A DNA stretch of 19,279 bases from IMG/VR virus record IMGVR_UViG_2534681764_000019, positions 1 to 19,279 of that record, one strand, 5' to 3'. This DNA comes from a virus. Taxonomy: Duplodnaviria > Heunggongvirae > Uroviricota > Caudoviricetes. Shown one piece after another: positions 1 to 14,868 of this stretch (position 1 is the stretch's first letter; every line of letters starts with the position of its first letter). The notes beneath the pieces were generated by a model. That model did not search any database. It was not told where the DNA came from and saw only the letters and a list, made by a program, of their open reading frames with translations. A program made the position numbers and the translations under genes.

Positions 1-1284
1 TTACTTCTTCGCCTCTGCAACCACTTTACTACCCACGCCGCGGTTATTGTATTCCCACATGCGGTTGTAGTTAGTGTCATTCAGATTGCGCTGTATTTCG
101 TCGTTATCATCTACGCTGCCGGTATTACCCGCAAACGGACGATTAGAGATCACCGCATCGGCCCACGGTTTAGCCGTGTTAAAACCTTCGTTGATGGCGC
201 TATCACGGATCACCACCTGACCGTTGGTATTGGCATCAACATCCAGCGAGCGGCCCAGTTGCGCCACACCATCACCGAAAGCATTGAAACGGCTGTTTAC
301 GGCGAGGAAACCGTAGTAAATGTTGGACAGCGTAGCCGGTGCAAACACATACGCTTCTTGCTGAGTACGTGAGTTCACCACGCGGAATTCGGTGTTATCG
401 AACACCACTGCGCCGCGACCAGAAACGATATCCACATCCCCTTCAATGTAGCTGTTGGTCACCAGCGTACGCGGCTGACGGTTGGTTTCCAGACGGTTCT
501 GCACACCGCTGTTGGTGACAAAGAAGGTGTTCTGACGACCGAGAATGTTAACGTTGTTAATCTGTACCTGGTCACCATCAGTACGCAGTGCCACCGCCGG
601 ATGGTTACCTGCATCTACGCTATCGCCCAGCGTGTTTTCGATGGTCAGATTTTGCAGTTGCAGGCCATTGTTTTGTGACCAGAAGACCGCAGAGCAGAGA
701 ACACCGATACTGTCGCTGCGTTTGCTCTGGCAGCTATCGTACATATACCACGCTGGTTTACCTGGCATATATTTGCCGCGCGGGTTGACGTCGTGACGCC
801 AGTCGGCAGGGCTCATGCCACCATCAAGGGAAAGCCCAATCTTCACATCAATCGGTTTTTCACCTGTACCGTACAGAGTAATTCCACCCGGAGCGGCAGG
901 GACATATACCGTTCCCTGATACTCACCAGGCATCACGGCAATATACTGGCGCTTGTTGGTACGCTTGATAATTGCCGCATCTACCGCCGCCTGAATCGTG
1001 GTATGCGTTACACCTTGAGTGCCCGCCGGGCCGACAACAAAGTCAGGTTGCGCAGGCAGGGTAATCGGGGAAGGATTCCACGCTGCAGCACCTGGTGTCA
1101 GGGATGCAAAATAGTGTTGAGCATCGAAATTCTGCGCTTCTTTTGCCGACAGAATCGGGCGAGAAGAGGTACCAGGCGCGGTTTGATCAGAAGGACGTTG
1201 ATCGGGCGGGGTTGAGCTACAGGCGGTCAGCGTCACGCCAAAAGCCAATGCCAGCGCCAGACGGGAAACTGAAAATGTGTTCAC
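1..1284 (-). CDS. ybhC: YbhC-like lipoprotein (pectinesterase-family / acyl-CoA thioesterase), host gene flanking attB-lambda
   Basis: 427-aa ORF with lipoprotein signal and lipobox (MNTFSVSRLALALAFGVTLTAC); recognised from memory as E. coli ybhC, which lies on the gal side of the lambda attachment site; stop codon at window positions 1-3. Confidence 0.85.
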   Translation of the reverse strand: MNTFSVSRLALALAFGVTLTACSSTPPDQRPSDQTAPGTSSRPILSAKEAQNFDAQHYFASLTPGAAAWNPSPITLPAQPDFVVGPAGTQGVTHTTIQAAVDAAIIKRTNKRQYIAVMPGEYQGTVYVPAAPGGITLYGTGEKPIDVKIGLSLDGGMSPADWRHDVNPRGKYMPGKPAWYMYDSCQSKRSDSIGVLCSAVFWSQNNGLQLQNLTIENTLGDSVDAGNHPAVALRTDGDQVQINNVNILGRQNTFFVTNSGVQNRLETNRQPRTLVTNSYIEGDVDIVSGRGAVVFDNTEFRVVNSRTQQEAYVFAPATLSNIYYGFLAVNSRFNAFGDGVAQLGRSLDVDANTNGQVVIRDSAINEGFNTAKPWADAVISNRPFAGNTGSVDDNDEIQRNLNDTNYNRMWEYNNRGVGSKVVAEAKK

Positions 1285-2959: not shown

Positions 2960-3240
2960 TTCGCATTCGTTCAAATTGCGTTTACTTCTTGGCGTTCTGT
3001 TCATCCATATCGATATACCATGGGTTGCTTCCCTTGGGCATGTTTAACGACTGCTCGCGATAGTATCTGATGCGCTCCATGAAATACTCGCGTGAGTGCT
3101 CAGGTTGCTCTCATGATACCTGCTCAGTGATAACAGGTATGTTAAGGCGCTCTCTGTACTCCATGCCTGATGCTGCAAGGTCAACGTTTACCTTGTTCTG
3201 TTTTTCTTTCGATTTCTCGGCGATGTTATGCCTGACATTG

Positions 3241-3483
3241 TCAACCCGCCTCCTTCTGAACATAACGGTTATAAATCAGTCCCTGAGGGCCATAAGGAAG
3301 CGGGATGTGCAACTCCTCTGGTTCAGAAACTATCCATTCCCCGGCCATCTCCGCTGGAGAGGTAATGATAAGTTGTTTGCTAATAAAAGGACCACTCCTC
3401 TCAACAACAAGCTTACCATCTTCATTAATAAAAGCTTGGATGTCAGGTGTGCTTACACACTTGGTGATGCAGCGTTTGAACAT
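3241..3483 (-). CDS. Hypothetical 80-aa protein with its own promoter (moron-like)
   Basis: ORF MFKRCITKCVSTPDIQAFINEDGKLVVERSGPF...; G-rich RBS before the ATG; extended -10 promoter upstream; no family recognised. Confidence 0.55.
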   Translation of the reverse strand: MFKRCITKCVSTPDIQAFINEDGKLVVERSGPFISKQLIITSPAEMAGEWIVSEPEELHIPLPYGPQGLIYNRYVQKEAG

Positions 3484-3514
3484 TTTGTGTCCCCCCCATT
3501 TTATGTACGGGGTA

Positions 3515-3523
3515 ATTATAACA
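3515..3523 (-). promoter_or_regulatory. Extended -10 promoter (TGTTATAAT on minus strand) driving the 80-aa gene
   Basis: Minus-strand sequence TGTGTTATAATTACC lies about 35 nt upstream of the ATG at 3483 in an AT-rich gap; no good -35 seen. Confidence 0.45.
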
Positions 3524-3610
3524 CATTGAAATATAGTAATATTTGACGTAGATTTCTTTTGATCTATAAGCGATTTTTTAATGCTTTTAAGTTATAAATA
3601 CTTGTTTTCA

Positions 3611-4663
3611 TCACCCATCTTGCTGCGGTGCTACTATTGAAAAGTACTCACACCCTTTAGCCCAAATAGTTTTGATAGTTGTCCAACTGACTGGAACCTT
3701 GATTTCGATTCTCCCGCTGCCGTCACAAGTTTCGCAATCATCATCACCAAAGCATTCCGGGCAGCTTATAAACGTAGTTTCTGAAAATTCACCGGATAGC
3801 ACACCCTTAGCGCCATTCTCAGCGGTTAGTTTCTTCGGCACTATAACCCAACCATCCGGAGTTACCGGAGAGTTGCCCGATGGCTCGTTCAACTTGTAAT
3901 TCTGGCTTACAGGTTGGCTACCCTGAAGCATGGCGGCGAGGCAGGCGTTCCAGCCATGCATATATCCAGTAATAGACCCCATCTTATGCCACTTATCTGA
4001 ATGAAAAGCGCTCATGGCACCAAGATAGTCGATATATGAAATTTGTTTATACCTTTCATTTGGGGCTTTCTTTTCTGATGCAGCTACATCATTCTCTATC
4101 ATCTGCGCTTGCGTGATGCTGTGTCGCGGTATGTCTGAGTTGTTCATTCTCGCATCCACATTAGCATCAAACTCGTTATATTCCATCTCTGCCAGGTCAC
4201 CCCAACTAGCCAGCCCAGGTTCGTTTTCATCACCGAAAGCATCCTTGTCTCGCAGGAAACGATAGCGCAAAGCATCACGCTCTATGCTTAAGCGCAATAC
4301 CTTTTCGGCTGTCGCAGCATCGCGCCAGGTATTGAATCCATCTGGACCTTTAACTTCTTCGCGCAATTGATAAAGCTCTGCGTAGATTTCATCAGGCACA
4401 GATACCGTCGCTGGCGGGGCGGCGTAGACCTCAATAATTCCATTATCAATAGGCCATTCTCCATCCTTGAGGTAGTCACTTGTGCCGTCAACTTGCTGTT
4501 CTGCAATGTGGAATGCACCTATTGGTTTTGCTTCCAGCGATGCCAGAGCAATTCGTGCCAGTTCTTCCGCTTCTTCTGCTGGCAGTACAACGTTGCTACC
4601 AGGTCCGTATGTTTCGCGCCACTGCTTGATTGTCAGTAGTCGCTCTTTGGTCATAGTGGTCAT
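3611..4663 (-). CDS. Hypothetical 350-aa protein with C-terminal CxxC...CxxCxGxG zinc-ribbon motif; last gene of the leftward operon
   Basis: ORF starting MTTMTKERLL with strong RBS AAGGAGAG; ATG is 1 nt after the upstream gene's stop; C-terminus CPECFGDDDCETCDGSGRIEIKVP; no family recognised. Confidence 0.7.
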   Translation of the reverse strand: MTTMTKERLLTIKQWRETYGPGSNVVLPAEEAEELARIALASLEAKPIGAFHIAEQQVDGTSDYLKDGEWPIDNGIIEVYAAPPATVSVPDEIYAELYQLREEVKGPDGFNTWRDAATAEKVLRLSIERDALRYRFLRDKDAFGDENEPGLASWGDLAEMEYNEFDANVDARMNNSDIPRHSITQAQMIENDVAASEKKAPNERYKQISYIDYLGAMSAFHSDKWHKMGSITGYMHGWNACLAAMLQGSQPVSQNYKLNEPSGNSPVTPDGWVIVPKKLTAENGAKGVLSGEFSETTFISCPECFGDDDCETCDGSGRIEIKVPVSWTTIKTIWAKGCEYFSIVAPQQDG

Positions 4664-4664
4664 A

Positions 4665-5156
4665 TCACTCTCCTTTGATGCGAATGCCTGTTGCAATGCT
4701 GTTTATGATGCTGTCAGTGCATGGGGTAGAAAGCTGGGCATCTCCAGCAATTTTCATGACCTCAACATCTGCATATCGAATACCGAGGTGTATCAGACCG
4801 GCTATGCCTGACTTAAGCCGAGCATTTTCCATAAATAGAACTTTTGCCCGCTGTTTTTCTGCTTCAAGCTCAACGCGCAGCTTCCCTACCGTTAGCGCAA
4901 TTTCCTCGTTCTCCTGATCGCGGGATTTGATGTATTGCTGGTTCCTTTCCCGTTCATCCAGTAGTGCCAAAGCAACCTTTGGATTAAAGGCAGCAATAAA
5001 TTCAGCGTTGTTTTTCAGAACGTGTTGCGCAATGGCCTGACTACTTAGTCGGACCTCATAACCACGTGCGCCACGGTGTGGTTTATATGAGTCCCAGTCT
5101 CCCCACGTTGCTTTCTCTGCCGCCTCACGCAGTGCCTGATAGTTAATTTTGCTCAT
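4665..5156 (-). CDS. Hypothetical protein, tentatively Ead/Ea22-like; coiled-coil middle region
   Basis: 163-aa ORF MSKINYQALREAAEKATWGDWDSY...; the N-terminal ALREAAEKAT motif resembles prophage Ead/Ea22-like proteins as I recall them; translationally coupled on both sides. Confidence 0.55.
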   Translation of the reverse strand: MSKINYQALREAAEKATWGDWDSYKPHRGARGYEVRLSSQAIAQHVLKNNAEFIAAFNPKVALALLDERERNQQYIKSRDQENEEIALTVGKLRVELEAEKQRAKVLFMENARLKSGIAGLIHLGIRYADVEVMKIAGDAQLSTPCTDSIINSIATGIRIKGE

Positions 5157-5981: not shown

Positions 5982-6160
5982 TTCTTCCCACTCCGCCACA
6001 TCGCATTCAGATATTTGTTTTGATTTACTGACGGAAAAGAATTTCTCTTAAGCAATTCCTCTCTCGATGGCATTGGCTTTACGCGTTGGCGAATAATCAT
6101 TTCTGCCGGAAGAATGCCGGGATTGTATGCAAGTCCTCTCATGGTAAATTCCTCAGTCAT
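5978..6160 (-). CDS. Small hypothetical protein (about 60 aa)
   Basis: [43 protein letters not shown]...; start overlaps the upstream gene's stop and stop overlaps the next start (ATGA); start choice is uncertain. Confidence 0.4.
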
Positions 6161-6446
6161 TACTGATAGCGCCATAGCGTGAGCGGTAATTACGCAGGCG
6201 CGGGTCAATTTCAGGGAAGTGGGTGTATGTGGCTTTGCGGAATGGTCGGATTGATGTCTGGTAAATTCGCTCTCGTTCTTCTTTCTCTGCAAGCCATATA
6301 CAATGGCGAAATTCCTTTTCCTCTTTCGTTTCCTGCGGTAGCGACATTATCAGGTCGTAGTTTTTTCTGAATTTATCCAGCACCTCCGATACGGAATTGC
6401 CGGAACAGCGGCGCGGGTCATCCGCACCATACTGAGGCGCTGGCAT
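6153..6446 (-). CDS. Hypothetical 97-aa protein
   Basis: [49 protein letters not shown]...; AGGAG RBS 7 nt upstream; 13 nt after the HNH stop. Confidence 0.55.
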
Positions 6447-8731: not shown

Positions 8732-9043
8732 TTAGGCGGCTGATGTTTCTTCTTTCAGGCTTTCGAGATATTTACGTGGGTCGTCGTAACATTGGCATTC
8801 GCTGTACCAATCCACCCAGCGATCAGTAAGCCCCATCTCTGATAAATCTTCATCGGTAAGGCTCTCATCCCACATCTCAAGGCCGTTAGCATTGCAGTAA
8901 TCAGGCTTGATGTTGTTGTCATACTGAAAGGCGTCATAATCAGCCAGTGCGTCCATCAGGCGAACACCCTCTTCAACACTTGCCACTTCTGCAATGAACG
9001 GTTTCATAGGTACTTGCGGGATATGCCAGACACGTAATTTCAT
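8732..9043 (-). CDS. Hypothetical 103-aa protein, positional equivalent of lambda ea10
   Basis: ORF MKLRVWHIPQVPMKPFIAEVASVEEG... with GGAGGA RBS; an upstream in-frame ATG at 9097 lacks an RBS. Confidence 0.55.
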   Translation of the reverse strand: MKLRVWHIPQVPMKPFIAEVASVEEGVRLMDALADYDAFQYDNNIKPDYCNANGLEMWDESLTDEDLSEMGLTDRWVDWYSECQCYDDPRKYLESLKEETSAA

Positions 9044-9218
9044 ATTTCCTCCGTCAAAAAAATTGCCCTCACACTGGAGGGCAAAGAAGATTTCCAATAA
9101 TCAGAACAAGTCGGCTCCTGTTTAGTTACGAGCGACATTGCTCCGTGTATTCACTCGTTGGAATGAATACACAGTGCAGTATTTATTCTGTTGTTTATGC
9201 TAAAAATAAAGGCCACCA

Positions 9219-9419
9219 TCAGGCAGCCTTGTTATTCTGTTTACCAAGTTCTCTGGCAATCATTGCCGTCGTTCGTATTGCCCATTTATCGACATATTTC
9301 CCATCCTCCATTACAGGAAACATTTCTTCAGGCTTAACCATGCATTCCGATTGCAGCTTGCATCCATTGCATCGCTTGAATTGTCCACACCATTGATTTT
9401 TATCAATAGTCGTAGTCAT
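9219..9419 (-). CDS. ral: Restriction alleviation protein Ral
   Basis: 66-aa ORF MTTTIDKNQWCGQFKRCNGCKLQSECMVKPEEMF...; matches lambda Ral in length and sequence as recalled. Confidence 0.8.
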   Translation of the reverse strand: MTTTIDKNQWCGQFKRCNGCKLQSECMVKPEEMFPVMEDGKYVDKWAIRTTAMIARELGKQNNKAA

Positions 9420-9497: not shown

Positions 9498-9824
9498 TCA
9501 AATAAGTGGTTTGCTGCCTAATTTCATTTTCTGGCGACCAACACAAGTCACACCCATTTCACTGCGTGGCTTGCTGTACCATGTGCGCTGATTCTTGCGC
9601 TCAATACGTTGCAGGTTGTTTTCAATCTGTTCGTGGTATTCAGCCAGCACCGTAAGGTCTATCGGATTCAGTGCGCTTTCTACTCGTAATTTCGGTTTGC
9701 GATTCAGCGAGAGAATAGGGCGGTTAACTGGTTTTGCGCTTACCCCAACCAACAGGGGATTTGCTGCTTTCCATTGAGCCTGTTTCTCTGCGCGACGTTC
9801 GCGGCGGCGTGTTTGTGCATCCAT
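9498..9824 (-). CDS. N: Antitermination protein N (lambda-type arginine-rich motif; C-terminus appears divergent)
   Basis: 108-aa ORF MDAQTRRRERRAEKQAQWKAANPLLVGVSAKPVNRPILSLNRKPK...; N-terminal part matches lambda N as recalled; about 200-nt leader containing nutL. Confidence 0.85.
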   Translation of the reverse strand: MDAQTRRRERRAEKQAQWKAANPLLVGVSAKPVNRPILSLNRKPKLRVESALNPIDLTVLAEYHEQIENNLQRIERKNQRTWYSKPRSEMGVTCVGRQKMKLGSKPLI

Positions 9825-10092: not shown

Positions 10093-10155
10093 AGTATCAC
10101 CGCCAGTGGTATTTATGTCAACACCGCCAGAGATAATTTATCACCGCAGATGGTT
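10093..10155 (-). promoter_or_regulatory. pL promoter with operators OL1-OL3
   Basis: OL1 TATCACCGCCAGTGGTA (10095-10111), OL2 CAACACCGCCAGAGATA (10119-10135), OL3 TATCACCGCAGATGGTT (10139-10155); minus-strand -35 TTGACA and -10 GATACT. Confidence 0.9.
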
Positions 10156-10311
10156 ATCTGTATGTTTTTTATATAGATTTATTTTTTGCAGGGTTGCGTG
10201 GCTTGGGAGGTGATCGAGAGATCTGAATTGCGATGTTTAGTGAGTTGTATCTATCAATTTTTCAATAAATACAATTTGTTAAGGTGTTGTTAGGTGTGTG
10301 GAGCGAGAGGC

Positions 10312-10337
10312 AAAGAAAACCCGGCACTGGGGCCGGG
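10312..10337 (-). terminator. Intrinsic terminator downstream of the ParA-like gene (tImm analogue)
   Basis: Minus-strand hairpin CCCGGC-cccagt-GCCGGG followed by TTTTCTTT, 10 nt past the stop at 10347-10349. Confidence 0.65.
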
Positions 10338-10346
10338 TTGGTTAAT

Positions 10347-11369
10347 TTATAGTTTAACCACCATCCTATCAATGGCTTCTAAGCAAGATTGTTTATATGG
10401 GGCATTAACTTTTACCCTTCTGTTCATAACTCGTACGCTCCCTGTTGGTAGGATCGAAAATGGACATCCTTTAGCAAAGGCAACAACACCAGTTGTCTGA
10501 AAATCTTTAATATTTACCACTCCCTCTTCAATATTTTCGAAGTCGAAAATTTCAGGGTTACTTAGTAATAGTTGCTGAATATCATTATCGATTGATTTCA
10601 GAACTGCGGCATAGGCTGATGCAGGCCCCATATACTGTGTAAGACGGTTTTTTGCGATCATATGCACTTTGGGTAGTGGTCTGCTCACCGCGGTAAGTTT
10701 GTTTGCAAATGCGTAGGATGCATAAATATCAGATGGCAACTTTAATCCATAAATCAAAGAGAAAGCATTTTGAATGGCGCGACGAGAGGAATCATCAGCC
10801 ATAACTGGCAAGATGAGCTTTTCTACAGCAGCTAATGCTATTTGAGTATAAATTGAAAAACTAGGATTACAGTCAATAAATAAAACATCGTACTCATCAT
10901 TTAGATCTTTAATAAGATCATTAATCCAATCAATGATGCTTACCCATGCATTTGTTCCTGGAATCTGCTGATTAGCAAGAGTGTTGATGGCGTTTGCTTG
11001 AAGCTCAAGAAGCGGGTCACCGCATACCAACGATATATTGGCTGGAATATGTTCGTTGAATTTTTTTGGGTGTGTCAAATAATCGTGGGCATCAACAATG
11101 GGTTTTTGATAAGGCGTCGGGAGGCGCATTTGGAAGTAGCCACCCAAAGTACATCTATTATTTATATCATGCCTAGTCAATAAGTTTATGCTTCCATTAC
11201 CTATTAACCCCCCAAGAAAAAGCTCTGACAAGTTTGCCTGTGGGCACACATCAATAACCAACACGCGCTCAAGCGGGTGAATTTCTGCATATCTGCAAAT
11301 AGCTTGAAATGACAGGCTTGTTTTCCCTGTTCCTCCCTTGTTGTTCCATATAGCATATTTCTTCATCAT
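10347..11369 (-). CDS. ParA/MinD-family P-loop ATPase with about 80-90 aa C-terminal extension, in the position lambda uses for rexA-rexB
   Basis: 340-aa ORF MMKKYAIWNNKGGTGKTSLS...; deviant Walker A KGGTGKT, A' motif VLVIDVCPQANLS, Walker B-like VLFIDCNP; AGGAG RBS 6 nt before the ATG at 11369; an in-frame ATG at 11441 has no RBS. Confidence 0.75.
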   Translation of the reverse strand: MMKKYAIWNNKGGTGKTSLSFQAICRYAEIHPLERVLVIDVCPQANLSELFLGGLIGNGSINLLTRHDINNRCTLGGYFQMRLPTPYQKPIVDAHDYLTHPKKFNEHIPANISLVCGDPLLELQANAINTLANQQIPGTNAWVSIIDWINDLIKDLNDEYDVLFIDCNPSFSIYTQIALAAVEKLILPVMADDSSRRAIQNAFSLIYGLKLPSDIYASYAFANKLTAVSRPLPKVHMIAKNRLTQYMGPASAYAAVLKSIDNDIQQLLLSNPEIFDFENIEEGVVNIKDFQTTGVVAFAKGCPFSILPTGSVRVMNRRVKVNAPYKQSCLEAIDRMVVKL

Positions 11370-11404
11370 AAACTCCTGGTTAACGATGTCATTGCTGGTT
11401 AATG

Positions 11405-11486
11405 TTTTACCATTGGTAAAGTGGTGCACCAAGAGTGACACGGTAAACCAAATAGATCAAGACTTTTGGTAAACGATTTACCAGTG
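11405..11486. promoter_or_regulatory. Operator-like inverted repeats between cI and the ParA-like gene
   Basis: TTTACCA-T-TGGTAAA (11406-11420), GGTGCACC (11422-11429), half-site GGTAAAC (11442-11448), TGGTAAA-CGA-TTTACCA (11466-11482); a minus-strand TTGGTG-17nt-TAAAAC promoter-like element overlaps them. Confidence 0.4.
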
Positions 11487-11537
11487 GTGACATCGATAAC
11501 CGAAAAAGACTGCATTTCTGCAACCTGTTTCACACAA

Positions 11538-12254
<717 letters not shown>

Positions 12255-13883: not shown

Positions 13884-14581
13884 AAAACATCGCCGCACAG
13901 ATGGTTAACTTTGACCGTGAGCAGATGCGTCGGATCGCCAACAACATGCCGGAACAGTACGACGAAAAGCCGCAGGTACAACAGGTAGCGCAGATCATCA
14001 ATGGTGTGTTCAGCCAGTTACTGGCAACTTTCCCGGCGAGCCTGGCTAACCGGGACCAGAACGAACTGAACGAAATCCGCCGCCAGTGGGTGCTGGCTTT
14101 CCGGGAAAACGGGATCACCACAATGGAACAGGTTAACGCAGGAATGCGCGTAGCCCGTCGGCAGAATCGACCATTTCTGCCATCACCCGGGCAGTTTGTT
14201 GCATGGTGCCGGGAAGAAGCATCCGTTATCGCCGGACTGCCAAACGTCAGCGAGCTGGTTGATATGGTTTACGAGTATTGCCGGAAGCGAGGCCTGTATC
14301 CGGATGCGGAGTCTTATCCGTGGAAATCAAACGCGCACTACTGGCTGGTTACCAACCTGTATCAGAACATGCGGGCCAATGCGCTTACTGATGCGGAATT
14401 ACGCCGTAAGGCCGCAGATGAGCTTGTCCATATGACTGCGAGAATTAACCATGGTGAGGCGATCCCTGAACCAGTAAAACAACTTCCTGTCATGGGCGGT
14501 AGACCTCTAAATCGTGCACAGGCTCTGGCGAAGATCGCAGAAATTAAAGCTAAGTTCGGACTGAAAGGAGCAAGTGTATGA
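13880..14581 (+). CDS. P: Replication protein P (DnaB helicase loader)
   Basis: 233-aa ORF MKNIAAQMVNFDREQMRRIANNMPEQYDEKPQVQQV..., lambda P as recalled; start overlaps the O stop. Confidence 0.95.
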   Translation: MKNIAAQMVNFDREQMRRIANNMPEQYDEKPQVQQVAQIINGVFSQLLATFPASLANRDQNELNEIRRQWVLAFRENGITTMEQVNAGMRVARRQNRPFLPSPGQFVAWCREEASVIAGLPNVSELVDMVYEYCRKRGLYPDAESYPWKSNAHYWLVTNLYQNMRANALTDAELRRKAADELVHMTARINHGEAIPEPVKQLPVMGGRPLNRAQALAKIAEIKAKFGLKGASV

Positions 14582-14868
14582 CGGGCAAAGAGGCAATTAT
14601 TCATTACCTGGGGACGCATAAGAGCTTCTGTGCACAAGACGTTGCCGCGGTAACAGGCGCAACCGTAACCAGCATAAATCAGGCTGCGGCTAAAATGGCG
14701 CGGGCAGGAATCCTGGTCGTTGATGGTAAGGTCTGGCGAACGGTGTATTACCGGTTCGCTACCAGAGAAGAACGGGAAGGAAAGGTGAGCACGAATCTGA
14801 TTTTTAAGGAGTGTCGCCAGAGTGCCGCGATGAAACGGGTATTGGCGGTATATGGAGTTAAAAGATGA
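14578..14868 (+). CDS. ren: Ren protein
   Basis: 96-aa ORF MTGKEAIIHYLGTHKSFCAQDVAAVTGATV..., lambda Ren as recalled; overlaps the P stop. Confidence 0.9.
   Translation: MTGKEAIIHYLGTHKSFCAQDVAAVTGATVTSINQAAAKMARAGILVVDGKVWRTVYYRFATREEREGKVSTNLIFKECRQSAAMKRVLAVYGVKR

Follow-up and report, generated by a model that had tools for sequence, protein, structure and literature searches.

The window analysed here, the whole 19,279-nt stretch of a Caudoviricetes virus record (IMGVR_UViG_2534681764_000019), opens with the E. coli gene ybhC (positions 1–1284, 100% identity) followed by int and xis, and the prophage is therefore integrated, as a previous sequence-only reading had supposed; the site is att-lambda. 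The replication genes of the prophage are lambda O/P. In the immunity region, the interval between the cI repressor gene and the OL operators with pL contains a single credible open reading frame (ORF), which encodes a ParA/MinD-type ATPase and lies 168 nt downstream of cI on the same strand, without a partner gene (Table 1). Both the stand-alone gene and the lack of any other ORF in this slot had been recognized in that reading. The gene is foreign in composition to the phage: its GC content is 39.5% and that of its leader 39.9%, versus 47.6% for the remainder of the window, which bears out an impression of AT-richness first formed by eye, and its GC3 is 0.35 versus 0.43 for cI.

Table 1. Features of the ATPase cassette and its borders in the window (coordinates are those of the 19,279-nt stretch).
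Feature	Position	Strand	Basis or remark
OL operators and pL (TTGACA-17-GATACT)	10093..10190	-	Downstream border of the slot; context only
Intrinsic-terminator-like hairpin (AACCCGGCCCCAGTGCCGGGTT then TTCTTTG)	10318..10339	-	8 pairs, 6 of them GC, T-rich tail; 8 nt past the ATPase stop codon
Solitary ParA/MinD-fold ATPase gene, clade A of the GiPD474-related family	10347..11369	-	ORF, motifs, homology, fold
Conserved leader, 168 nt	11370..11537	-	Moves with the gene among prophages of different immunity types
Leader motif, inverted copy	11378..11392	+	Motif scan; abuts the Shine-Dalgarno sequence (AGGAG, 11377-11373)
Leader motif copy 2 (GGTTTACCGTGTCAC), degenerate in the window	11435..11449	-	Comparison of leaders
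Palindrome 7-N3-7, TGGTAAA-TCG-TTTACCA, candidate operator	11467..11483	-	Most conserved leader element
Leader motif copy 1 (GGTTATCGATGTCAC)	11487..11501	-	1 mismatch to the consensus
Hairpin and T-run, possibly a leaky terminator between cI and the ATPase gene	11507..11526	-	Directly past the cI stop codon
cI repressor, lambda immunity, 237 aa	11538..12251	-	Upstream of the ATPase gene, same strand; context only

The slot is an accessory hot spot. A survey of the cI-to-OL interval, which the sequence-only reading had proposed, did find relatives of the ATPase gene in the same repressor-linked position in ~25 IMG/VR prophages of enterobacteria, whose immunity alleles are of many kinds, but 604 E. 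coli records match the flanks only and carry other cargo (e.g., HicAB, P63C, or an SDH protease). The ATPase gene is missing from most related phages and is therefore dispensable for their life cycle. The hairpin just past its stop codon, at first taken for the gene's own terminator, does have the form of an intrinsic terminator and ends the immunity-left transcript, but it belongs to the slot and not to the cassette, because the flank that contains it (10200–10341) is common to HK97, mEp234, and HK106, each with different cargo. The cassette itself (about 10342–11537) was acquired horizontally as an accessory ("moron") unit and occupies the hot spot between cI and pL in a lambda-immunity prophage.

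The ATPase gene encodes 340 residues, beginning MMKKYAIWNNKGGTGKT. An AGGAG sequence lies 3 nt ahead of the first ATG and 6 nt ahead of the second (11366), at which translation may start to give a protein of 339 residues. A GTG start at 11441 (364 residues) was considered and rejected, as the homologues begin MKKY or MMKKY and the AGGAG immediately precedes this shorter start. The three motifs by which the protein had been identified are located at residues 11–17 (KGGTGKT), 38–45 (IDVCPQAN), and 163–169 (LFIDCNP). They contain Lys11 and Lys16 of a deviant Walker A motif (NNKGGTGKT), Asp40 of Walker A′ (IDVCPQ), and Asp166 of Walker B (FIDCNP), all of which are invariant in 37–40 diverse homologues, and the ATPase is, judged from these motifs, predicted to be catalytically intact. 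The three-dimensional fold is that of ParA/MinD (deviant Walker A, SIMIBI ATPase superfamily), and the best structural matches are DNA-segregation ATPases, namely the DNA-binding ParA, McdA, delta, and pNOB8 ParA. Profile searches, as had been suggested from the sequence, returned ParA-type families only in Pfam and PHROG (AAA_31), and the partition ParA models of NCBIfam were matched only below threshold (35–40 bits versus cut-offs of 180–348). No recognizable effector domain is present in the protein. The protein is ~90 residues longer than Soj-type ParA; the extra residues had been described as a single C-terminal extension of 80–90 residues but in fact form two sets of insertions, ~48 residues between residues 60 and 155 and ~42 residues in the C-terminal half.

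The lack of a ParB and the integration of the prophage in the chromosome make a classical partition role for this ATPase unlikely. Among the partition ATPases, type Ia ParAs employ an N-terminal helix-turn-helix, and those of type Ib depend on ParB. No ParB-, ParG-, or omega-type partner gene lies in the slot, and PHROG and Pfam detected no ParB in the 19-kb window; the absence of a partner first noted in the slot thus extends to the window. The window protein differs from type Ib and chromosomal ParA/Soj, from McdA, and from delta of pSM19035 in having no ParB, McdB, or omega partner, in its additional residues, and in the location of its gene in a prophage integrated at att-lambda, as opposed to the extrachromosomal replicon of type I partition.

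The protein is homologous over its full length to GiPD474 (gipd474, STM474_RS13505), a single-gene prophage defence from Gifsy-1 of S. Typhimurium 4/74 (Bosma, Noireaux & Bowden, AEM 2025, PMC12724215). In Salmonella and E. coli K-12, deletion and complementation of GiPD474 showed that it protects against T4, Alf5, and Felix O1 by roughly 5 logs (PMC12724215). Residues 4–339 of the window protein match residues 21–359 of GiPD474 at 32% identity (E = 6e-54; E = 4e-51 for the E. coli variant). Both are solitary ParA/MinD-fold ATPases with AAA_31 matches, and their homology includes the family-specific insertions and the C-terminal region. The two genes also share their setting, a prophage immunity region beside repressor, cro, and cII with no partner gene (GiPD474 occupies the corresponding slot of Gifsy-1), and their spread by horizontal transfer. 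However, the identity of 32% is far under the 70% cut-off that the authors set for "homologs" (PMC12724215), and the window protein is therefore a divergent relative, outside their defined set. It lacks the ~17-residue N-terminal extension of GiPD474 and belongs to a separate clade that spans many phyla.

Because it encodes a distant full-length relative of GiPD474, the window gene is most likely a defence gene. We consider that the ATPase probably has a lysogen-expressed anti-phage (or anti-mobile-element) function and not one in DNA partition; defence remains the best reading of the locus, as it had been from position alone. Further support comes from the repressor-linked position of relatives in distant phages, the accessory character of the slot, the invariant catalytic residues and purifying selection, the foreign composition, the absence of ParB from an integrated prophage, the kinds of neighbour found outside the enterobacteria, and, as described below, the partial homology to RemA and the HEPN operon of clade B. 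The phenotype itself has been demonstrated for GiPD474, at 32% identity, a distance over which function may have diverged. Also against defence, the closest structural relatives are those segregation ATPases, and a scan with PADLOC-DB v2 (2023), a library older than both GiPD474 and RemAIN (see below), gave 0 families at E ≤ 1. Lambda RexA-RexB, the textbook accessory exclusion system of this locus, is reminiscent of the cassette in its cI-to-OL/pL slot and in its orientation. RexAB is expressed with cI in lysogens and is a two-protein system composed of a sensor and a membrane channel. Only the position is held in common, as the window protein is one cytoplasmic P-loop ATPase with no sequence or fold relationship to RexAB.

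In average-linkage identity clustering, by which the relationships between clades are approximate, the window protein falls in clade A, whose members hold 55–70% identity across bacterial phyla (including Actinobacteria, Cyanobacteria, and Bacteroidota) and one archaeal MAG. The ATPase gene is under strongly purifying selection (dN/dS = 0.04); in the cross-phylum comparison, dS is saturated yet dN is only 0.07. Clade A is solitary in all of ~67 distinct sequences examined, and all-versus-all neighbour clustering together with Pfam on 149 neighbour ORFs revealed no conserved partner gene for this clade in a search of ~170 loci. The neighbours outside the enterobacteria are integrases (the commonest), phage genes, Mrr, methylases, and BrxL, and a ~5-kb element of Streptomyces, inserted in ligA and equipped with two tyrosine recombinases, carries the gene as its sole cargo. 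Pseudomonas phage phi297 and a Klebsiella phage encode more distant relatives (35% and 31% identity, respectively), in each case immediately after a cI-type repressor gene that is read in the same direction.

A gene in this lysogenic-conversion position could also encode a modulator of host physiology, a ParA/MinD-type positioning or regulatory ATPase that acts on cell division, nucleoid organization, or transcription to a benefit of the lysogen unrelated to phages. A gene conserved, as in clade A, in Actinobacteria, Cyanobacteria, Bacteroidota, and an archaeal MAG cannot rely on a host partner specific to one lineage, and the nearest characterized relatives are defence genes, which together make such a role very improbable. 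The same conservation also speaks against defence, since identities of 55–70% across phyla are unusual for immune genes and suggest a host-independent target such as DNA.

The leader travels with the gene. It is 86% identical in two prophages (L013 and L017) and 73–79% identical in four others (L021, L023, L029, and L032), all downstream of unrelated cI alleles, and a portable conserved leader of this kind appears to be new. At its upstream end, the hairpin with its T-run has a stronger version in relatives, GGTCGCAGAAATGCGGCC followed by T7. Because of this hairpin (11526–11507) and the 168-nt conserved leader, simple read-through from pRM is not assured, and the co-transcription with cI that had been expected is uncertain. 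Within the leader of the enterobacterial cassettes, no sigma70 promoter could be placed with confidence, which is a point against the lysogen-expressed defence reading. A promoter-like site at 11392–11365 was rejected as the promoter of the gene, as its -10 element overlaps the start codon.

The leader motif has four matches where 0.45 are expected, three of them in the leader. As RNA, the leader has a fold z score of -3.0, and the predicted fold pairs the inverted motif copy with motif copy 1; alternatively, the two copies form a distant inverted repeat on DNA. RNAalifold on the leader repeats gave three pairs changed on both sides (one of which was checked, columns 78/194), a pattern that does not separate the two readings, because a symmetric protein that binds an inverted repeat on DNA would leave the same trace. 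A search of the cassette against Rfam yielded no family match, with only a chance-level hit to P9 at E 0.7.

Leaders from outside the enterobacteria contain a sigma70-type promoter whose spacer holds a 13-bp palindrome, GTCCA-N3-TGGAC, and the TGGTAAA-N3-TTTACCA palindrome of the window shares this arm-N3-arm layout with relatives in other phyla. The placement of the palindrome in a promoter spacer suggests that the gene may be autoregulated by the ATPase itself. Where two palindromes are present upstream, they are 21 nt apart, and some relatives carry tandem arrays of 9-nt half-sites (~74 units in L035 and 10 in L037). About half of the clade A loci lack the operator or have it in a form too diverged to recognize, and no operator or leader of the clade A type (GTnnA-N3-TnnAC) was seen upstream of GiPD474-type genes.

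These repeats and arrays, which are centromere- or operator-like, fit a DNA-handling or maintenance role and in this respect speak against defence. In a self-contained maintenance or anchoring module, the ATPase would bind its own repeated sites and the nucleoid and so tether or segregate the element when it is excised or replicates; integrative elements and phages would have in it a partition-like system made of one protein. Such a module would be in keeping with the conserved palindromes and their 21-nt spacing, with the half-site arrays, with the structural matches to ParA, McdA, delta, and pNOB8 ParA, with the frequent integrase neighbours and the Streptomyces element, and with a cross-phylum conservation expected of a DNA target that does not depend on the host; the phi297 authors, for their part, raised unstable lysogeny as a speculative connection (PMC3564109). 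We nevertheless regard it as unlikely here. The prophage is integrated at att-lambda, replicates by lambda O/P, and has no ParB-type adaptor, and the gene is dispensable for the life cycle of the many related phages that lack it. The surveyed enterobacterial prophages usually carry the gene in a lysogenic, repressor-linked slot that is elsewhere home to exclusion and toxin–antitoxin genes, and the defence phenotype of GiPD474 was seen from a plasmid clone without any cis array (PMC12724215). Given their place inside promoters, the repeats can be read as an operator no less readily than as a centromere.

For the ATPase as a defence protein, the same palindromes raise a tentative possibility, which we hold with rather low confidence, that the ATPase itself binds DNA in a sequence-specific manner. 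Bound to ATP, its two-fold dimer would recognize the 13-bp palindrome (or, in the enterobacterial cassette, TGGTAAA-N3-TTTACCA) in the spacer of its own portable promoter, and the same DNA-reading switch would sense or block invading DNA and, in sister clades and RemAIN, control HEPN RNases. If so, gene and operator would constitute a minimal, host-independent one-protein module, and we know of no described ParA that resembles it. The promoter-embedded palindrome thus leads to a hypothesis open to direct testing, namely that a ParA lacking ParB binds specific DNA sites in an ATP-dependent manner and regulates its own gene.

The HEPN RNases come into the family through a sister clade, clade B, with 33–40% identity to the window protein over the full length. 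In 17 of 18 clade B loci, a gene for a ~200-residue RiboL-PSP HEPN protein with an invariant RHSFAH begins 4–10 nt past the ATPase stop codon. The arrangement is that of the ParA/Soj-ATPase and HEPN (MAE_18760/RiboL-PSP) dyad predicted to be a toxin–antitoxin or defence pair (Anantharaman et al. 2013, PMC3710099); the existence of a sister clade in an operon with a RiboL-PSP HEPN RNase appears to be new. A HEPN (Rx4-6H) partner is absent from the window and from all clade A loci examined.

A second association with HEPN is that of RemAIN from Gifsy-1 of S. Typhimurium 14028 (STM14_3218-3220; Sargen & Helaine 2024), which, in the passages of PMC13043305 and PMC9879122 that describe it, consists of the RemA ATPase, the RemI immunity protein, and the HEPN anticodon nuclease RemN. 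The RemAIN locus, recovered here as L228 9574–11454, occupies the same slot, directly downstream of the prophage repressor. With RemAIN (2024) placing a ParA-like ATPase in this slot and GiPD474 (2025) acting as a single gene, the statement of the sequence-only reading that no single-gene ParA-type defence had been described is outdated. RemA is a protein of 279 residues that lacks the C-terminal third of the window protein's family, and the match to it is limited to the N-terminal ~200 residues (residues 6–195; 28% identity, E = 4e-14, hhalign probability 99.1%). Whereas RemAIN comprises three genes with a HEPN tRNA nuclease as effector, the window cassette consists of the ATPase gene alone, with no RemI or HEPN (RemN) gene in the slot or elsewhere in the 19-kb window; moreover, RemAIN worked only in a host-specific background, which the solo GiPD474 did not need. 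No relationship between RemN and the clade B HEPN was found in a viral scan, a large protein search, or hhalign.

An ATPase descended from ParA–HEPN dyads could act as an orphan antitoxin or anti-defence factor that neutralizes HEPN RNases of co-resident elements (RemN-like or of the RiboL-PSP type) and thereby protects the induction of its own prophage. For HEPN dyads, the predicted antitoxin is the ParA/Soj partner (PMC3710099); at the 40%-identity clustering level, the phi297-like clade C, which is solo, joins the dyad-bearing clade B; and RemAIN, as far as those accounts of it go, shows ATPase–HEPN modules at work in inter-prophage competition. We judge this explanation to be decidedly improbable: solo GiPD474 defends by itself in E. 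coli K-12, clade A is solitary across phyla with no evident cognate HEPN, and the sequences of RemN and the clade B HEPN are unrelated.

Returning to defence, the following sequence of events can be proposed. The lysogen would produce the ATPase, with transcription either starting in the gene's own leader or reading through from cI. In the ATP-bound state the protein would dimerize into the two-fold-symmetric sandwich known from deviant Walker A ATPases, and this dimer would bind DNA, including the palindromic sites of its own leader, and so regulate its own expression. Upon infection by certain phages, the ATPase switch would block a post-adsorption step, alone or through a host factor. In the sister lineages, the same ATPase is wired to a HEPN RNase, the RiboL-PSP neighbour in clade B and RemN, alongside RemI, in RemAIN.

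If clade A also defends, the one-gene ParA-fold defence of Gifsy-1 would be not an enterobacterial curiosity but a branch of a large cross-phylum family. Its members would come as solitary genes, as pairs with a HEPN RNase, and as the three-gene RemAIN, three formats whose comparison could help to show how a ParA-type ATP switch becomes an immune sensor or effector. The cassette is common in Salmonella Infantis and is also found in E. coli prophages, and it could therefore affect host ranges in phage therapy and biocontrol, much as GiPD474 does in the case of Felix O1.

The ParA/MinD motifs quoted in the sequence-only reading are all present in the 340-residue ORF between cI and OL/pL; its second ATG is better spaced from the AGGAG, so the protein may have 339 residues, the length of most database homologues. 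In terms of family, the protein matches the Pfam models AAA_31 (1.1e-16) and CbiA (1.8e-6) and PHROG_164, "ParA-like partition protein" (7e-39), and NCBIfam partition models match it far below their cut-offs. The Walker A residues K11 and K16 as well as D40 and D166 are invariant across the homologues aligned. Comparison with a 98.5%-identical copy gives a dN/dS of 0.04; with 90%-identical copies, saturation has been reached at synonymous sites and dN is only 0.07. What had been taken for a single C-terminal extension is split: beyond the ParA core there are about 90 residues, ~48 of them between residues 60 and 155 and ~42 in the C-terminal half. The AT-richness judged by eye was borne out by a GC content of 39.5% for the gene and 39.9% for its leader vs 47.6% for the rest of the window.

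A single-gene ParA-type defence had been thought undescribed, which no longer holds: GiPD474, a single ParA/MinD-fold gene in the Gifsy-1 immunity region of S. Typhimurium 4/74, was published from the rexAB slot in 2025 (Bosma et al., AEM 2025, PMC12724215), and the ParA-containing RemAIN system was reported there in 2024. Deletion of GiPD474 restored plating of Felix O1, and a low-copy clone protected both LT2 and E. coli K-12 by ~5 logs from T4 and Alf5 and not at all from T7, SP6, or S16; expression is high in exponential growth (PMC12724215). The GiPD474-type genes that we recovered from IMG/VR, one of which occupies the Gifsy slot, encode 361 residues with GGVGKT at residues 29–34, matching the paper. 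GiPD474 aligns end to end with the window ATPase (window residues 4–339 vs 21–359) at 32% identity and E 6e-54, and its E. coli variant aligns with E 4e-51. The published homologue survey was limited to at least 70% identity (PMC12724215); the window ATPase, a divergent relative, thus lies outside that family definition, and its clade is far wider in distribution.

Database relatives number 5,312 at E <= 1e-5, and 102 clusters at the 50% level score below 1e-30 with full-length coverage. Proteins of 339–340 residues with 55–70% identity occur in Streptomyces, Micromonospora, Mycobacterium, Cellulomonas, Stenotrophomonas, and Novosphingobium, and also in a cyanobacterium, Clostridiaceae, Chitinophaga, Planctomycetota, Acidobacteriota, Saccharibacteria, and a Methanosarcinales MAG. 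Clustering by identity, applied to 137 distinct sequences, separates clade A, which holds the window ATPase (~67 sequences, all solitary), from clade B (18 sequences), the solitary phi297-like clade C, several members of which lie downstream of a cI-type repressor, clade D, and several small groups. One small group holds the protein of Klebsiella phage ST11-VIM1phi8.2, which shares 83% identity with the GiPD474-type proteins. Some 25 enterobacterial IMG/VR prophages have the gene 160–490 bp downstream of an S24-type repressor, with many different repressor alleles among them, and the homologues of Pseudomonas phage phi297 (35% identity) and ST11-VIM1phi8.2 (31%) occupy the same position. Outside the enterobacterial prophages, no conserved neighbour gene of clade A was found. 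Pfam matches among 149 neighbouring ORFs comprise integrases (6), S24 and HTH repressors (3 each), Mrr (2), methylases (2), BrxL (1), and phage structural and lysis genes. In Streptomyces sp. DK15 (L008 7273–14381), a ~5-kb insert whose sole contents are the ParA-like gene and genes for two tyrosine recombinases (800 and 415 residues) splits ligA, the NAD-dependent DNA ligase gene, into a 528-residue N-terminal part and a 183-residue HHH/BRCT part. A 74%-identical homologue in Hafnia paralvei (L004 1–2366) sits in a small, defence-island-like neighbourhood with an integrase, a truncated S24 peptidase, a GmrSD_N protein, and an AAA_15/AAA_21/DUF3696 ATPase.

Clade B is the ParA/Soj–HEPN dyad predicted in 2013 to be a toxin–antitoxin system (Anantharaman et al. 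2013, PMC3710099). Its ATPases share 33–40% identity with the window ATPase, and in 17 of the 18 loci a ~200-residue RiboL-PSP HEPN gene with an invariant RHSFAH starts 4–10 nt past the ATPase stop codon. These operons occur in cyanobacteria, Poribacteria, and proteobacteria; the Poribacteria loci also carry a conserved ~900-residue gene upstream on the same strand. RemAIN consists of three proteins: the ATPase RemA, the immunity protein RemI, and RemN, a HEPN anticodon nuclease. Their genes, STM14_3218–3220, immediately follow the Gifsy-1 repressor gene of strain 14028 (Sargen & Helaine 2024, via PMC13043305, PMC9879122). We recovered the locus with a 31-mer from the Gifsy-1 flank. RemA aligns with the N-terminal two thirds of the window ATPase only (28% over residues 6–195, E 4e-14; hhalign 99.1%), RemN is unrelated in sequence to the clade B HEPN proteins, and Pfam gave zero matches for RemI and RemN, though RemN is published as a HEPN nuclease. 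Together, clade A, clade B, and RemAIN present the ATPase module in three formats: solitary, dyad, and three-gene. That the solitary window ATPase is an orphan antitoxin or an anti-defence factor seems to us quite improbable. A search of the 19-kb window for a HEPN gene, a ParB, or a plasmid replicon found none, in agreement with the earlier statement that a ParB partner is missing between OL and cI.

The 168-nt leader (11370–11537), which the sequence-only reading did not mention, stays conserved along with the gene even where the upstream cI alleles are unrelated. Its palindrome is nearly invariant, its ~15-nt motif does not occur elsewhere in the window beyond chance, and the predicted RNA fold (z = -3.0) pairs the inverted copy beside the SD with copy 1; the enterobacterial leader may have an RNA-level role. 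In clade A members from other phyla the upstream regions are unalignable apart from GTCCA-N3-TGGAC, found within 120 nt of the start codon in 19 of 42 loci (24 sites, where the remainder of those loci predicts 0.38). The spacer is 3 in every site, and paired sites are 21 nt apart wherever two occur. Among 20 loci, 13 have the palindrome occupying the 16–18-nt spacer of a TTGACA/TATAAT-like promoter, most with an extra GTCC directly after the -10, and other members have variant arms (GTAAA, GTAGA, GTCCG). Directly upstream of 74–76%-identical homologues lie half-site arrays of 9-nt tandem units, GTCCACGAY/CACGATGTC; they may act as centromere-like sites or titration arrays, or be products of slippage. 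Clade D has its own conserved motif, TTAACAGTAATAG, placed ~60–90 nt before the ATPase start, a hint that operators are specific to each clade. The simplest interpretation of a solitary gene that keeps this element across phyla is that a dimer of the ATPase would itself bind these sites and autoregulate. The cis sites may also have a centromere-like role, and the repeats, like the structural neighbours, also fit DNA maintenance, which counts against a defence role. A one-protein anchoring or partition module strikes us as unlikely. Three things appear to be new: how widely the clade is spread, the candidate palindromic operator embedded in the promoter with its half-site arrays, and the connection of solitary ATPases with HEPN dyads and RemA.

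Accessory genes collect in the cI-to-OL slot of lambda-immunity-type prophages, a hot spot in which the ATPase is rare cargo in E. coli. The gene is present in 0 of 5,426 complete E. coli genomes; queries with window 10200–10341 and 11533–11600 gave flank-only matches in 604 E. coli records, the slot being filled by, among others, HicAB, a P63C-domain protein, an SDH-family Clp-fold protease, or hypothetical proteins. Such diverse cargo merits a systematic survey. The terminator-like hairpin at 10339–10318 does follow the ATPase stop codon as first described, but belongs to the slot: the flank around it is also conserved in HK97, mEp234, and HK106, whose cargo is different. The exact window protein is encoded on 29 contigs of E. 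coli assemblies. In Salmonella, members of its 90% cluster are common in serovar Infantis, with 424 contigs, and are also present in Kentucky, Typhimurium, and further serovars; Salmonella phage S.Inf 5-2 carries a copy of 98.5% identity.

By analogy with GiPD474, the window ATPase probably provides a lysogen-expressed function against phages or other mobile elements. This reading draws on homology to a tested single-gene defence, repressor synteny in distant phages, the hot-spot position, an intact and strongly constrained catalytic site, foreign composition, and sister ATPases wired to HEPN toxins. An ATP-dependent dimer switch would bind DNA, its own operator included, and upon infection by particular phages the ATPase would block a post-adsorption step, alone or via a generic host factor. 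Counting against defence, no effector domain was found in the protein, a PADLOC scan gave no match, and conservation is unusually high for an immune gene. A modulator of host physiology is very improbable in our estimate.

Coordinates of features in the window and in compared loci
Feature	Position	Strand	Remarks
ybhC	1-1284	-	E. coli chromosomal gene; 100% identical to E. coli genomes; pectinesterase fold
int	1419-2489
xis	2467-2685
Abc2	6153-6446		P22-type anti-RecBCD
SieB-like	8732-9097		superinfection exclusion
Ral	9219-9419		antirestriction
N	9498-9824
ParA/MinD-type ATPase ORF	10347-11369	-	340 aa, starts MMKKYAIWNNKGGTGKT
~15-nt motif, inverted copy	11378-11392		adjoins SD
~15-nt motif, direct copies	11501-11487 and 11449-11435
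7-N3-7 palindrome	11483-11467		TGGTAAA-TCG-TTTACCA
Hairpin + T-run	11526-11507		directly after cI stop codon
cI	11538-12251	-	lambda immunity
Ren-like	14578-14868
RemAIN locus	L228 9120-11454		IMG/VR UViG_2648501477_000001; includes 131-aa HTH repressor
RemA	L228 9574-10413		279 aa
RemI ORF	L228 10400-10792		overlaps RemA
RemN	L228 10792-11454		220 aa
Half-site array	L035 4313-4978		~74 units
Half-site array	L037 2615-2706		10 perfect units
Clade B HEPN operons	L070 4914-6646		also L116, L118-L120, L125, L127, L128, L132, L138, L142, L147, L168
Conserved upstream leader/operator			L009, L012, L008, L043, L047, L049, L054, L064, L096, L102, L106, L109
Clade D motif			L069, L072, L076, L084, L124, L130, L133, L134

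By gene annotation, the 19 kb span the left and central portions of a lambdoid prophage. With ybhC at the window start, followed by int/xis and the other prophage genes, the prophage is integrated at att-lambda, its attL falling at ~1285–1418, and it replicates by lambda O/P. Int and xis are followed by Ea22-like, Abc2, endonuclease, SSB, Erf, SieB-like, Ral, and N; past N come OL/pL, the ATPase gene, cI, cro, and cII, and to the right of cII O, P, Ren, nin genes, Q, and lysis genes. SieB-like, Ral, Abc2, and the Ren-like gene are further conflict genes of this prophage. PHROG_12036, of "unknown function", matches ybhC, probably due to host DNA inside prophage calls. Two sizeable ORFs lie between xis and the early-left genes: a 158-residue ORF on the strand opposite to its neighbours (3070–3546, +), with no PHROG or Pfam match, and a 361-residue ORF (3611–4696, -), with no Pfam match and with PHROG matches confined to families of unknown function (best phrog_60, 2.5e-50). 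Both are possibly more accessory cargo.
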